DNA of 63,029 nt from an uncultured Nitrososphaerota archaeon (GTDB lineage: Archaea > Thermoproteota > EX4484-205 > JAAOZO01), in the NCBI GenBank assembly GCA_964408285.1, contig CAYOYV010000010.1:1813-64841 (forward strand), read 5' to 3'. Below the pieces are notes generated by a model. That model saw only the letters and a list, made by a program, of their open reading frames with translations, searched no databases and had not been told where the DNA came from. This document shows, one piece after another, positions 19,652 to 24,720 of this stretch. The position numbers were made by a program, and so were the translations under genes. The number at the start of each line of letters is the position of its first letter. Position 1 is the stretch's first letter.

Positions 19652-20065
19652 CTATTCATCTTCCAGCTCATAGAGTTTCTCTGACTTCTTGCCCTTCGAT
19701 TGACGTACGATGCCCCTCCTAGACAGTTCTTCGAGTTTCTTGGAGACGGTCCGTCTCGATGCTCTCCCAGCCACTTGTCTCAGGGTCTCTGTGAGTTGGG
19801 AGACATTCTTCGGTCCCATTTCAATGAGCGTCTCAACTATTCGCCTAGCCACCTCGCCAGATCTTAGTGAGGCGGAAACCAGAGCGATTCGTCTTGATGT
19901 TCCGGCGATCTCGCTGCTTGTCTGAACGACTTCTTTGACTATAGATAACTCCCTTGCCAGCTCAGCGGTCAACCGCCTCTCTTTTCTCAGTTGGGATTCA
20001 AGCTGCTCAATCTTCTTGGCGATTTTCTTCAGTCTATCTTCTGTCTCTCCTGAGTTCGCTGACAA
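19652..20065 (-). CDS. Coiled-coil plus winged-helix DNA-binding protein
   Basis: Heptad N-terminus; IVETL...NVSQLTE..ASRRTVSKKLEELSRRGIV wHTH. Confidence 0.82.
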   Translation of the reverse strand: MSANSGETEDRLKKIAKKIEQLESQLRKERRLTAELARELSIVKEVVQTSSEIAGTSRRIALVSASLRSGEVARRIVETLIEMGPKNVSQLTETLRQVAGRASRRTVSKKLEELSRRGIVRQSKGKKSEKLYELEDE

Positions 20066-20324
20066 GGCTCGAGATTGTCCGCACGCTAAACAAATACTTA
20101 ACTGGTGAGTACAGTGTATCAGCTATCCTGCTCGCGTATTCCGGTTCAACGCCTTGCCTAACAAGTTCGCTTCTCAGAGCTGATATCCCTCTCTCTATGT
20201 TCAATTTGATCGGAACGAAAACAAAAAACAGAAGGTAGATGCCGGCATAGAGCAACGTCGCCGTTAGCCACACAGCCTCTATCGCATAGACCACATGGCT
20301 CCAGATGTCTGTCCAGAACCCCAT
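20034..20324 (-). CDS. Small membrane-anchored hypothetical protein
   Basis: N-terminal TM, then LRSELVRQGVEPEYASRIADTLYSP. Overlaps the wHTH gene. Confidence 0.7.
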   Translation of the reverse strand: MGFWTDIWSHVVYAIEAVWLTATLLYAGIYLLFFVFVPIKLNIERGISALRSELVRQGVEPEYASRIADTLYSPVKYLFSVRTISSLVSELRRDRR

Positions 20325-20353
20325 GCCGACCAGACCCTGAATTGTTTTCTCTT

Positions 20354-20686
20354 CTACTCGCCAGCTTCTTTTTCTTTCACTTCGATTTCTCTTTGCGCGC
20401 GGGAGCCCAGGACGACCTTGGCCAATTCCATTGGAGATGCGAACTGCTCTTGAGTGATCCTCTGGGCCTGTTCCTTGTCTATGCCTGAGGCTATCAGCTC
20501 CTTGTAGAACGTTGCAATTGCCTTAGCCTTGTCCTTTGCCTGTTCTTCTGTCACGGTGAAGGCCATCAATTCCTTTATCAGAGGTAGAATATCCTTGAGC
20601 AGTCCCGGAATTTCCTCTCGCACTGTCCTGAGCACTCCCCTCAATTCCTCAACGTCTGAACTCTCCACTTCCTTCTTTTCACTCAT
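20354..20686 (-). CDS. Small acidic helical hypothetical protein
   Basis: KAIATFYKELIASGIDKEQAQRITQEQFASP; first gene of a three-gene operon. Confidence 0.8.
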   Translation of the reverse strand: MSEKKEVESSDVEELRGVLRTVREEIPGLLKDILPLIKELMAFTVTEEQAKDKAKAIATFYKELIASGIDKEQAQRITQEQFASPMELAKVVLGSRAQREIEVKEKEAGE

Positions 20687-20703
20687 CCATAGTTCACCGT
20701 TGA

Positions 20704-20732
20704 TAGGAATTGGTCAATCATATTTAGGAATT
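20704..20732 (-). promoter_or_regulatory. Direct repeat AATTCCTA x2 (21 bp spacing) around a TATA-like element; putative operator
   Basis: Plus-strand TAGGAATT at 20704-11 and 20725-32. Minus-strand CCTAAATA overlaps the upstream copy. Confidence 0.45.
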
Positions 20733-20758
20733 ATGCGAAAAAGTAATCAGAAAATTGC

Positions 20759-21553
20759 TCAAGATGGCAAAACGGGCGCCGAACTGCAATAGAGGGAATC
20801 ATAGCCTGACCCATCGCTCATCCCCCTTTCAAAATGTGTCGCTTCATCGGCTTTCGCCTCATGGATCAGCCTCAAAGCGGATGCGCGCCATAATATGTCC
20901 TCAACCGACAACCCCTCTATCTCGAGATAGTTCAGCGGGAGAGCAATACGCCTCGTTGAAAGAACTAGAGTATTCGGGCACTTCATGACCCTCAGAGGGT
21001 CAATAGTGGCGTGATAGTGCCAGGCATCGAGTATCTCGGGGATATCCCCTGCAAGTACACCAGCATACCTGATCTTCGAATGTGCTATGCTTCTTATTGG
21101 ATCGGCCGCATCGAACATTGCCCAATCCCTCATCTCCCAGTCAAGTATCCAAATATGGAAGCCCTTGTTCCCGGAATAGACAGTCAAGACCCGTTCGTAG
21201 TTTTGCTTGACGCGATCTAGAACTGTCAGGGCGAGATACTTGCAACAACGAAGACATGTCAGGCATGCCCTTCCATGGTGTTCATGTTGACGCAGCCAAG
21301 GCCCCACCATCCTAGAGTCGATGTCGACGACGAAGTCCGAGGCGACAGGATAGGCGAATCTTGAGTGAATTCTGTCTCCAACTCGTTCCGGGAATGTCCA
21401 TCTAGTGACAGATATATATACTGATTCTGGAATCAGGGCAACTAGAGCTTTCCGAAGGCCACGAAGGTGAGTCCTTCCTCTATTGAGCTTCACCCACGAC
21501 TTCTTTGGAAGAAGTTTCGCCCTGAAATGCCTCTGGGTCTCATGTGCCCTCAT
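20759..21553 (-). CDS. Archaeo-eukaryotic primase (PriS-like) catalytic domain protein
   Basis: Motif I DFVVDID, Zn-knuckle-like HEHHGRACLTC, motif II YSGNKGFH, motif III IDPLRVMKCPNTL. Start uncertain (ORF extends to 21733). Confidence 0.85.
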   Translation of the reverse strand: MRAHETQRHFRAKLLPKKSWVKLNRGRTHLRGLRKALVALIPESVYISVTRWTFPERVGDRIHSRFAYPVASDFVVDIDSRMVGPWLRQHEHHGRACLTCLRCCKYLALTVLDRVKQNYERVLTVYSGNKGFHIWILDWEMRDWAMFDAADPIRSIAHSKIRYAGVLAGDIPEILDAWHYHATIDPLRVMKCPNTLVLSTRRIALPLNYLEIEGLSVEDILWRASALRLIHEAKADEATHFERGMSDGSGYDSLYCSSAPVLPS

Positions 21554-21686
21554 TTCCCCAGGTAGTTCAAGTCTGGCGGAGGAATAGAATAGCTTGGACA
21601 GTGGGAACAACTTCCACGAACATGGCTTTGCAGGTGGATTTAGGCAGAGACAATGAGAATGATCGGAGAGACACGGGCCTCTGAAA

Positions 21687-22280
21687 GTGAAAGCAGATCC
21701 AGCGAATATCCTGAGCGACCCATGCAAGATCAAGGACCAGAAGGATTTCTGGTTGCCAACAATCCTCTTGCCGACAGGGACTGTTCGGTGCTTTACATTG
21801 CCATCCCTTAAGTCAATGGTTCGTCAGGGAATTCCGGTCATAGTTCTACAGAAGGCTTCCAAGTCGAACCCTTATGGACATTACAAGGTAGTTGTAGGAT
21901 GTGACGAACAGTTAGGGCAATTGAGAACGTATGACCCGGCTCTGGGCATGAATTACGGCATAACCTACGGACTGTTTGCTGATCTCTGGCTCCCGGGGTC
22001 AACTTTCTCTGCTGTGAATTGGAGCTTGGTGATCAGAGGCGAAACCGATGAGACAGTAATCCTAACGGGAAGGTTGCAGCCACTGATACACCAATACAAC
22101 AGTTCCCTCTCCTCATGTAGCTCAGAGCTCAATAGGACACGCTTGACATTGGGGGAGATTACGTTGCAGAGGAATACCTTTGCAGTTCTATCGGCTTGCA
22201 TCCCCCCATTGATCTTGATGCATTCTCACTGGCGAGGCCGGAGAAATGTGGGCCAACCAGAAGACCAGATAGACGCATAG
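21687..22280 (+). pseudogene. Papain-fold C39-like peptidase, N-terminally truncated, with coiled coil and C-terminal membrane anchor
   Basis: LKSMVRQGIPVIV..YGHYKVVVG.D....YDPALG supplies the His/Asp half. No catalytic-Cys motif (Q..CGP) was found upstream. Confidence 0.6.
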
Positions 22281-22461: not shown

Positions 22462-24720
22462 TCAGAAGCTGACACTACCCTCCCACGAATCCCACTTTGT
22501 CTTGAGCTCGTAGTCCCAGCTTTCGGTGGGGGTCCTGAAAGCCCCGGTTCGGACCATATCAGGCCTGTGGCTTAGATCGTAGATCGAAGGTTTCTCCGAA
22601 TCAAAGACTTCCTTTCCCTTATAGTATAGCTTCATCCCATCAATGAATGCGAATTCCAGGAGATCGCCAGAGAATCTCGTGTATACGTATGCCGCATCGC
22701 TGATTATTCCTCCATATCTGATTTTCCCTGCCTCATACGTGTAGGTCGGCCTGGCGTTTGGTCTAACCAAACCAAGGGATAGGTCATGCTTCGCACATAT
22801 GGATGCTGACGCGCCAAGATGATTCAATCGGATCGCGGTCGCCCGGGGATATTGGTCTGTTTGCAGCACCTCAATTCCATCGATGAACTCCTCAATCCGT
22901 TCTAGATCGTTGTGGGGAAAAAGGAGGGTCGTGAAGGAAATGAAGTCTCCTGGTTTGAAGGTCCTCGAACTGGATTGGTGCATGCATTTCTCCGGCAGGT
23001 AACAACGCATAGCCTCACTGGTGCCTATTGTCTTGTCAGCGTCAGGACTGAAGTATATCAGGAGCCTCTGCCCCTTTCTATTGGTGTAAGCGTAGCGTTT
23101 CCGTTCCTCAACGGCTATCCTTGGATTCCCCATGGCCCCGACAAGTCCAATGAGGTCCAACGAAGTATCGAAGTAATTTTCTTCTGAAACATGGATCTGT
23201 CGAGTCCAGAAGAGATTGCCGATCGTGAGCTCTCCGCTCCCAAGAATCCTCAAGCCATCTTGCACTACGAAGCAGTCAAGCCGCTTAAGGTAGGTAATGA
23301 TTCGATCCCAATGATAGCCATTCCTCTCGTCTATGACCTCGGTTCTGCTCACATCGATATCCTTGAAGACTTTGAAGTGGATCTTCCTCGTCTTCACCGG
23401 TTGATAGGCGCCAAGGTTATGCATGAAATCGAACAAGGTCTGTTTCTTCGGCTTTCCTTTGCGCACTACTATCCGGTTGTGATACACATCTGAACGATAT
23501 GCTCCATTTGGCAATGCCTCCCTGTAACCACCATCATGAAGCAAGAACGAACCATTCTTGATTAATGTAGCTATCGAATTCTCATCTGCGTGTCCATGAT
23601 GCATTTTCTCCGCGGTCACGACGATTGTGTTCCTAAGATGCTCCTTGTAATACCATCCAATGTCCCCCTCGTCCATGTAGTTGAGCAGCAAATAGGTAGC
23701 ATCTCCCTCCCAACCGTTTCGAAAGACTATCTTCTTCCCGATGACCTCATCCACTACCTCAGCGCTGATGGCGTCCGGAACTCTTGATTCGACCTTATCG
23801 TCCGCCCAGAGATATGCAAAGATGCTGTAGATTCCGAATTTCCCCTCTTGACGAGCCTGTCTGAATATCCGATCCGCGACATATTTCATGTATGGGTTTT
23901 GATAGACTGTTGCCCCCTTCTCCATCAAAATCATGCACAAGTCCCAAGCAGATCCCCAATTGGAGTCTCCGTAATCAGGGACCATACCCAAAGGACAGAA
24001 TAGGTTCGTGAAATAGTCGAAGTAGTACTTCATCATTGGCGACTCGAAGATGGTGGGGTCGCCCGCGAAATCGAGATATATCATCAGATCTGCCAGCCAG
24101 ATCAGACAATACATTGATGCATCTTCCAAGGACCAATGGCGAAGGCTGCTGTCGATCATGAGCTTACCGAGGCTTGACCATGTCGGGGCCCTAGCGTGGT
24201 CTGGGAACAGCTGAGCTGCATAGGCCAATGAAAGTCCGCTTTTTGCCGCACGGTTGTGAGCCCCCCATTCGGGGAACTGAAAGTAGGACTCAGCGGTGTT
24301 CGCTATTATGGTTTTGAGAATCTCCCTATCTTTGCGTCGCATTTGACGGCTATCCTTGATGAACTCATATGCCCTGAGAAAAAGACTCATACCGCCAAAG
24401 GTTGGTGTCACGGGATAGATTCCCTTGGAATATCTCTGCGACCGCTTGAGAGAATCCGGGGCTTCATTCGGGAATTCGGCGTAAGATAGCAGGGCTTCCT
24501 TGGCACGATGCGCGTGCTTCTCATCCTTGGTCGCATGGAAAAGTAAACCTTCGACCAATGCGGCATACAGCGGAGGCCCCGGAGCAGCATATTCGTTTGA
24601 GGATTCTAGATGCCTTCTCCAGTCTTCCAAGATCATGTCGTAGCTTTTTTGAGTTCTGTTCCACCATTCGACAATGTAATCCAGATATTCCTTCTTGGTG
24701 GTCAAGGTATTCCTCATCAT
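22462..24720 (-). CDS. Heparinase II/III-like (alpha/alpha toroid plus beta-sandwich) putative oligosaccharide lyase
   Basis: 752 aa; HNRA, E..SMY, PDYGDS, FRNGW, HHGHADENS..L, DGGY and HNRI motifs. No signal peptide. Confidence 0.65.
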   Translation of the reverse strand: MMRNTLTTKKEYLDYIVEWWNRTQKSYDMILEDWRRHLESSNEYAAPGPPLYAALVEGLLFHATKDEKHAHRAKEALLSYAEFPNEAPDSLKRSQRYSKGIYPVTPTFGGMSLFLRAYEFIKDSRQMRRKDREILKTIIANTAESYFQFPEWGAHNRAAKSGLSLAYAAQLFPDHARAPTWSSLGKLMIDSSLRHWSLEDASMYCLIWLADLMIYLDFAGDPTIFESPMMKYYFDYFTNLFCPLGMVPDYGDSNWGSAWDLCMILMEKGATVYQNPYMKYVADRIFRQARQEGKFGIYSIFAYLWADDKVESRVPDAISAEVVDEVIGKKIVFRNGWEGDATYLLLNYMDEGDIGWYYKEHLRNTIVVTAEKMHHGHADENSIATLIKNGSFLLHDGGYREALPNGAYRSDVYHNRIVVRKGKPKKQTLFDFMHNLGAYQPVKTRKIHFKVFKDIDVSRTEVIDERNGYHWDRIITYLKRLDCFVVQDGLRILGSGELTIGNLFWTRQIHVSEENYFDTSLDLIGLVGAMGNPRIAVEERKRYAYTNRKGQRLLIYFSPDADKTIGTSEAMRCYLPEKCMHQSSSRTFKPGDFISFTTLLFPHNDLERIEEFIDGIEVLQTDQYPRATAIRLNHLGASASICAKHDLSLGLVRPNARPTYTYEAGKIRYGGIISDAAYVYTRFSGDLLEFAFIDGMKLYYKGKEVFDSEKPSIYDLSHRPDMVRTGAFRTPTESWDYELKTKWDSWEGSVSF

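Follow-up and report, generated by a model that had tools for sequence, protein, structure and literature searches.

What function is served by three small adjacent genes, two of which encode related helical domains and the third a predicted DNA-binding protein? This question is raised by a stretch of 63,029 nucleotides from an uncultured Nitrososphaerota archaeon (contig CAYOYV010000010.1; the whole stretch is referred to here as the window), whose genome comprises 1.82 Mb in 46 contigs and whose class is represented by 26 genomes in the collection. The three open reading frames (ORFs) lie on the minus strand, at the coordinates given by the original prediction, a reading of the DNA made without database searches. 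They are referred to here as genes A, B and C:

20354..20686, minus strand: gene A, ORF of 110 aa with an ATG start; predicted soluble, all-helical product.
20034..20324, minus strand: gene B, ORF of 96 aa with an ATG start; product with an N-terminal hydrophobic anchor.
19652..20065, minus strand: gene C, ORF of 137 aa with a TTG start; predicted long helix followed by a winged helix-turn-helix (wHTH).

The ORFs of B and C overlap by exactly 32 nt, as had been claimed, and the peptides quoted at that time were found in A and B. The TTG of C is the first start codon past the preceding stop, and the next in-frame start-type codon would cost the protein the first ~30 residues of its long helix. 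This three-gene module is real, phylum-wide and uncharacterised.

A neighbourhood search across 401 Thermoproteota genomes showed that the triad is conserved. Gene A was found in 84 of these genomes (55 of 161 genera) and gene C in 85, the latter as full-length matches with best E values of 1.0e-46 to 1.5e-22. The matches of C are bimodal, with a strong full-length set on one side and generic wHTH matches near 1e-6 on the other. A and C occur together in 80 genomes. On the counts of 84-85 in 401, about a fifth of the sampled Thermoproteota keep this compact module. Four of the five genomes with C only show A beside C when a broader A profile (A4) is used, and the contig of the fifth stops 71 nt past C. 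With regard to the four genomes with A only, one A match is marginal (E 0.002), one locus has little sequence past A, and the remaining two loci (L103 and L104) have no C within 6-7 kb.

The order A-B-C was present in all 11 loci of the relatives that were examined first. The survey was then based on 87 pooled loci, reduced to 72 by dropping identical ones, with the gene orders ABC (24), ACB (19), AC (9), CAB (8), CA (4), AB (4), A alone (3) and CB (1). A and C are clustered in 64 of the 72 loci, and the cluster is unbroken by gene rearrangement. B was detected in 56 loci, under a criterion (B-profile E<0.05, hydropathy >=1.6, length <130 aa) that may overlook weakly hydrophobic forms such as that of Bathyarchaeum. 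The ORFs of B and C overlap in 22 of 24 B-then-C junctions and in 16 of 20 C-then-B junctions, which suits coupled translation. No other neighbour gene family accompanies the module broadly across lineages, the next commonest neighbour being an ABC ATPase found in 11 of 50 loci, mostly of Desulfurococcales.

Cultured members were identified in Thermosphaera, Staphylothermus hellenicus, S. marinus, Aeropyrum pernix (APE_0299.1 and APE_0297), Pyrodictium abyssi and Ca. Bathyarchaeum tardum, where the annotation goes no further than 'hypothetical protein' or 'ArsR family transcriptional regulator'. The view that no functional description exists agrees with our findings: neither a described family nor a paper turned up for the module, and the limited literature covered by the search contained no paper mentioning APE_0297, APE_0299.1, APE0297/APE0299, Q9YFE4, Q9YFE2 or four WP_ accessions.

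The two smaller proteins had been proposed to carry paralogous domains on the basis of a shared motif, EL..xG[IV]..E.A.RI....SP. The core of this motif, EL...G[IV]..E.A.RI, fits both proteins and has exactly two six-frame matches in the window, A and B. The terminal '....SP' fits neither of them, given that RI and SP are separated by six residues in A and by five in B. Compared as a pair, A and B align by BLASTP at E 0.003 with 10 of 33 residues identical, which is weak evidence, and hhalign profiles restricted to the window's own, Brockarchaeota-like class (A1 against A2) reached a probability of only 17.9% (E 0.0013, 25 columns). The profile-profile comparison was decided by alignments of 32 A proteins (A4) and 32 B proteins (A6), both drawn from many lineages, which match at 95.3% probability and E 2.2e-8 over 52 columns, pairing residues 49-97 of A with residues 39-92 of B. 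The controls, C against B and C against A, gave 0.6% and 0.2%. In seven genomes, the A profile also matched the adjacent small ORF (E 1.3e-4 to 6.7e-3 per genome), and the A profile outscored the B profile on the B-equivalent of Ca. Bathyarchaeum. The signature common to both families consists of an aromatic residue, L, G-[ILMV]-[PSK], A, [LIM] and a further aromatic residue. These profile alignments establish homology between the C-terminal half of A and the domain of B predicted to be cytoplasmic.

Protein A has 35 homologues at E<=0.001 and belongs to a family of 542 representatives at 50% identity (E<=0.001), in which all named matches come from Thermoproteota-type archaea. One JGI record of the family bears the automatic name 'RanGAP', which is not supported by any analysis here. 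The AlphaFold2 model of A contains helices only and is confident only at residues 50-80, which form the hairpin shared with B. The maximum hydropathy over 32 A sequences is 1.44, so that none reaches 1.6. A and B of the window match no Pfam, NCBIfam, PADLOC or PHROGs family. No recurrent family emerged when 32 A-family and 32 B-family proteins were scanned singly against Pfam at E<=10, a threshold at which HMMER filters discard most matches above E ~0.1, and further members are likewise without a family. Two homologues of A each gave a single weak and unrelated PADLOC match, to DruH3 (0.0033) and mad1 (0.0011).

By Foldseek, the model of A has no match in the pdb at E<=0.001, and the best Z in the VIA-align fold search was 6.4, which is within noise; a family missing from these lists is not evidence of its absence. 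An Atlas search with A returned archaeal clusters without names (0.83-0.86) and weak structural rows, and a search with P0049 gave no usable match among named clusters. As a separate observation, the A profile weakly matches (E 4.5e-4) inside a ThyX gene (L032, 1222..1941, minus strand; G010:C7) that is assigned to PF02511 at 2e-70, and the A model aligns by Foldseek with Thermotoga ThyX chains at E 3.6-9 over 48 columns with 25-29% identity. This is probably a chance resemblance of one helical hairpin.

One of the two domain copies had been claimed to be tethered by a transmembrane helix, and the N-terminus of B is indeed hydrophobic, with a Kyte-Doolittle maximum of 2.03 over 19 residues. 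The anchor spans approximately residues 11-43, and the 19-residue maximum is at least 1.6 in 12 of 12 B proteins. In ten of these, the next 15 residues contain 5-8 Lys/Arg and at most one Asp/Glu, the exceptions being L011, with four Lys/Arg, and the B protein of the window, with three Lys/Arg and two Asp/Glu. According to the positive-inside rule, this basic stretch would give the shared domain a cytoplasmic location. When B was used in a word-based search for homologues, only B itself was recovered; its equivalents were found by position in 11 of 11 relatives and later by profile.

With regard to C, the AlphaFold2 model (mean pLDDT 90.7) shows a single 64-residue helix (residues 4-67) followed by a winged helix-turn-helix composed of helices 71-83, 88-99 and 104-116 and wing strands 120-124 and 130-134. 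Foldseek aligned it with probability 1.00 to the DNA-binding domains of Fur, MarR, CadC, BigR and CzrA (best E 3.5e-3), with no single wHTH family among the Fur, MarR, ArsR/SmtB and PadR types being favoured. Pfam matches at E<=1 include HTH_20, FUR, Penicillinase_R and TrmB, and no PadR match is present among the 25 of 27 families listed. C of the window scores 21.2 bits against HTH_20 (PF12840), under the cut-off of 27, and 20.2 against NCBIfam HTH_metalloreg, for which the cut-off is 55. Its homologue from Pyrodictium (P0064) passes the HTH_20 cut-off of 27 at 30.4 bits, and the homologues P0038, P0041 and P0047 remain under it. In PADLOC and PHROGs, C matches only the wHTH parts of Csa3 (2.1e-6) and of a phage regulator (1.7e-4). 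The proposal that the third gene encodes a long-helix wHTH protein is thus borne out by AlphaFold2, Foldseek and Pfam together, and we assign a winged helix-turn-helix DNA-binding fold to C on the strength of its model and its structural matches. The recognition helix carries the signature RG.ASR, in which G100, S103 and R104 are invariant and R99 and A102 are present in at least 90% of 36 sequences.

A conserved recognition helix fits a conserved DNA target, and the sequence upstream of A contains the following candidate elements:

20743..20761, minus strand: candidate operator TGAGCA-N6-TGATTA(C), two repeat units at 12-nt spacing, just upstream of the factor B recognition element (BRE)/TATA region.
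20721..20728, minus strand: TATA-like box CCTAAATA, 34 nt upstream of the A start codon, read from the sequence.
20694..20698, minus strand: Shine-Dalgarno-like GGTGA, 7 nt before the A start codon, read from the sequence.
20725..20732 and 20704..20711, minus strand: direct repeat AATTCCTA, 21 nt from start to start.

The box CCTAAATA lines up with CTTATAAA in 11 relatives and is probably a promoter element, and GGTGA or GGTGG precedes the A start in most relatives. The direct repeat AATTCCTA had been regarded as bracketing the promoter. It does occur twice, 21 nt apart, with the first copy overlapping the TATA-like box and the second lying between the TATA-like box and the start codon. As an operator, it was rejected: it is absent from the equivalent promoters of the 11 relatives and thus specific to the window, which contains 43 exact 8-mer direct repeats 9-30 nt apart (15-25 in five shuffles), so that its occurrence is not beyond chance. 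That the pair is unique in the genome is expected of any 16 specified bases and is uninformative.

The conserved repeat lies further upstream. Relatives carry a tandem unit directly upstream of CACAAGTCTTATAAA, at the place equivalent to TGAGCA-N6-TGATTA in the window. In five of five genomes of one genus, GRGTAAAAA-N3-GRGTAAAAA stands just upstream of A, with no second copy in any of these genomes; the pattern is so long that uniqueness is expected, and the information therefore lies in its conserved position. A relaxed search for the repeat pattern retrieved the site of the window itself and one unrelated place, which is uninformative.

The frequencies of all 6-mers in the 120 nt preceding the first module gene were compared with those in the remainder of the loci, using 39 non-identical loci that belong to classes other than that of the window. 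The six top 6-mers of the 1639 counted, TGACCA, TGAGCA, GTGAGC, TGAACA, GTGAAC and TGATCA, occur in 7-12 loci each, where 1.0-2.6 were expected (nominal p 5.8e-8 to 6.7e-5). All six represent a single short, palindrome-like site, TGnnCA(C), in variant forms; it is often present in two copies 11-14 nt apart. We infer that C binds a TGnnCA-type site, and the description of the module as 'self-regulating' is plausible in view of this conserved upstream motif, which replaces the repeat originally put forward.

These observations can be combined in the following reading, which we favour tentatively and to which we give somewhat less than even weight: C autoregulates the module and is itself controlled by binding A and/or B. 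C would be a DNA-binding wHTH protein, probably dimeric via its long N-terminal helix, that binds repeated TGnnCA-type elements immediately preceding the BRE/TATA of the module itself. A and B, which carry the same ~50-residue helical domain, would be its protein partners. With its domain at the cytoplasmic face of the membrane, B would tether or silence C, and A would compete or relay in soluble form; a signal linked to the membrane would in this way alter the amount of free C reaching the promoter.

Little is understood of signal transduction in Thermoproteota, a phylum in which classical two-component systems are scarce. The module may represent a hitherto undescribed form of one-step membrane-to-promoter signalling native to Thermoproteota and independent of HAAS-PadR and anti-sigma systems, in which a wHTH autoregulator is switched between an anchored partner and a soluble paralogue serving as decoy or relay; we regard this broader proposal as doubtful. 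If regulation by a membrane tether were true, it would constitute a simple and widespread archaeal route from membrane state to transcription, and would name three families that are now only 'hypothetical' or 'ArsR family'. Aeropyrum, Staphylothermus, Pyrodictium and Thermosphaera are cultured hyperthermophile carriers.

Several loci depart from the usual arrangement. At L105 (1420..2604, minus strand; G142:C4), a KaiC-like domain (PF06745, 44.6 bits) is attached to the C-terminus of C, which is transcribed divergently from A-B. At L031 (673..1947, minus strand; G013:C6), the A-type domain recurs as a near-copy (A-profile E 1.2e-24, residues 89-149) inside a multi-pass membrane protein of 424 aa, where it is flanked by hydrophobic segments; the C-terminal part of this protein is non-membrane, and this genome, from the window's order, also has a normal triad. 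The KaiC-fused C and the A-type domain within a membrane protein are both compatible with a regulator that has membrane partners. Two genomes have a gene for a SAM-dependent methyltransferase between C and A-B (L107, 1882..2427, plus strand; L108, 2150..2677, minus strand).

Regulation of C by A and B has a number of points against it. The binding of C to the motif, the binding of A and B to C and the membrane-related signal are all steps that we infer. The p-values of the 6-mer test are overstated because the loci are related, an earlier count of TGNNCAC that gave an 11-fold enrichment was made after inspecting the same regions, and the position of the operator motif upstream of BRE/TATA is not, on its own, indicative of repression. 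A alone was modelled at low confidence (mean pLDDT 66.7). In 13 of the 72 loci, A and C are present with no B detected, and B may be dispensable, or missed by detection, in these cases. Finally, B is uncoupled from C in the eight loci with CAB order and in those with the intervening methyltransferase gene, so that the argument from the overlap of B and C is not general. A complex prediction for C with A (alignments A5 and A4) scored 0.00 against a mark of 0.32 with no controls run, and counts neither for nor against this reading.

The strongest alternative, which we consider possible and rather unlikely, holds that C merely serves A and B as their dedicated transcription factor and is bound by neither, and that A is recruited to the membrane by pairing with B in a structural or stress-protective role. 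The gene arrangement lends it some support: short gaps separate adjacent A and B genes at 36 junctions, the pair remains intact where C is upstream, divergent or split off by the methyltransferase gene, and L105 has the divergent layout of a regulator and its target. Homologous domains also often pair, and the homology of A and B has been established above. It is more difficult to reconcile with the ACB order, in which C stands between A and B and overlaps B at 19 loci, an arrangement unusual for a mere regulator, and with the almost one-to-one co-occurrence of A and C across the 401 genomes. Neither PspA/ESCRT-III nor another membrane-remodelling family is present among the Pfam matches of 32 A proteins at E<=10.

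A second alternative is that A and B belong, at a very remote distance, to the HAAS superfamily (DUF1700/HAAS_TM and DUF1048), so that the module would be the archaeal counterpart of the HAAS-PadR dyad; we consider it improbable. In the published account, the dyads are bacterial, and HAAS is a three-helix domain with a kink in the third helix at a conserved GxP; the domain is free or fused to membrane domains and always stands beside a PadR-like wHTH (PMC11237479). The parallel architecture, with a helical domain that is free or membrane-attached beside a wHTH, and the G-[ILMV]-[PSK] of the shared domain, which recalls the GxP, favour this explanation (PMC11237479). One structural neighbour cluster in the Atlas is 20% DUF1048 (TM 0.50), and the DUF1048 chain 2o3l_B aligns with the A model in VIA-align at Z 4.8 (rmsd 4.7, 71 aligned), a value that is within noise for helical models and ranks 47 of the 50 listed.

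Against this stands the result that PF08006 (HAAS_TM/DUF1700) and PF06304 (DUF1048) are matched by 0 of 32 A and 0 of 32 B proteins at E<=10, subject to the HMMER filtering mentioned above. A search of the window's genome with PF06304 also gave no match; the corresponding search with PF08006 gave none either and is uninformative because the control genomes gave none. G-[ILMV]-[PSK], conserved in the A and B families, reads G-I-D in A and G-V-E in B of the window, and the G-x-P of the A model falls at the turn that joins helices 47-66 and 71-82 and not inside a kinked helix. In HAAS_TM proteins the domain precedes the membrane segment, the opposite of the order in B, where the anchor precedes the domain. 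C has its long helix at the N-terminus and, as described above, no listed PadR match; the PadR-type chains 3elk, 1xma and 6fuu do appear in its Foldseek list, amid many wHTH families at similar E values.

Lastly, the idea that C and B form a DNA-to-membrane tether for chromosome or plasmid anchoring or segregation, modulated by A and distinct from a transcription switch, would suit a DNA-binding wHTH protein co-produced with a membrane-anchored partner and an essentially single-copy, widely conserved module, and is very improbable in view of the conserved DNA motif at the module's own promoter, the lack of a partition ATPase linked to the module and the presence of a single full tandem site in each of five genomes (5 of 5), a count that speaks against numerous anchoring sites.

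Some further observations concern individual loci and the surroundings of the module in the window. The Walker A glycine-lysine motif of the KaiC-like domain at L105 is apparently replaced, as judged by eye, and the membrane protein at L031 looks like a natural fusion of an A-type domain to a membrane sensor-like protein. Pyrodictium abyssi (L091 and L092; G294) has two A-C copies in one complete genome, one of them with B after C. Directly upstream of the module in the window, an ORF at 20759..21733 (minus strand) shows the archaeo-eukaryotic primase signatures VVDIDS and SGNKGFHIW and weak PriS matches (TIGR00335 at 1.7e-6; PF01896 at 15.7 bits, under the cut-off). Its first ~60 residues look unlike protein, so that the true start may be later, and the regular PriS of this genome is on another contig (53.3 bits). 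Two genes upstream of the module, a 752-aa ORF at 22462..24720 (minus strand) has no Pfam family at E<=0.001. That the module is a mobile element was considered and rejected: the primase-like ORF is not beside the module in relatives, the base composition near the module is flat and unremarkable, the window contains no tRNA genes, and a scan of viral contigs with the A1 patterns gave no relative.

How, then, does the preferred reading, in which C controls its own module under the influence of A and B, compare with known systems? In the Psp system of Proteobacteria (PspF-PspA-PspBC), a soluble helical protein can bind the transcription factor, and small membrane proteins shift the partner of that soluble protein under membrane stress. 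The likeness is confined to this three-part logic: A is not PspA-like, C is a small wHTH protein instead of an AAA+ enhancer-binding protein, and A and B are homologous to each other, which PspA and PspB/C are not. Membrane-anchored anti-sigma factors cross the membrane once and use a helical domain on the cytoplasmic side to sequester an ECF sigma factor that is co-transcribed with them and often translationally coupled. Here again only the logic is shared, with no sequence relation; C is of the DNA-binding repressor or activator type and not an RNA polymerase subunit, and archaea are not known to have sigma factors.

The ArsR/SmtB regulators (HTH_20, PF12840; HTH_5, PF01022) share the wHTH fold of C, databases label several members of the C family 'ArsR family', and the Pyrodictium member passes the HTH_20 cut-off. 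In contrast to these regulators, C has its 64-residue N-terminal helix in place of the usual ArsR dimer interface, the RG.ASR signature is the C family's own, and C of the window stays under the HTH_20 cut-off.

The HAAS-PadR dyads, the closest described proposal, are a predicted signalling system put forward as an alternative to two-component systems (PMC11237479), and are like the module in two respects and possibly in a third. Both place a small helical domain, free or joined to the membrane, beside a stand-alone wHTH; in the proposed logic of both, the helical domain holds or reconfigures the regulator upon a membrane signal; and the conserved G-[ILMV]-[PSK] of the module may correspond to the Gly-x-Pro-type motif of HAAS. 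The module differs in that the long helix of C precedes the wHTH and Pfam likens C to ArsR/MarR and not to PadR, in that the helical domain occurs in it twice, as a soluble and as an anchored paralogue, and in that it is archaeal and, as far as names show, confined to Thermoproteota. On paper, the module resembles the HAAS-PadR proposal, and membership in that family is a candidate assignment only.

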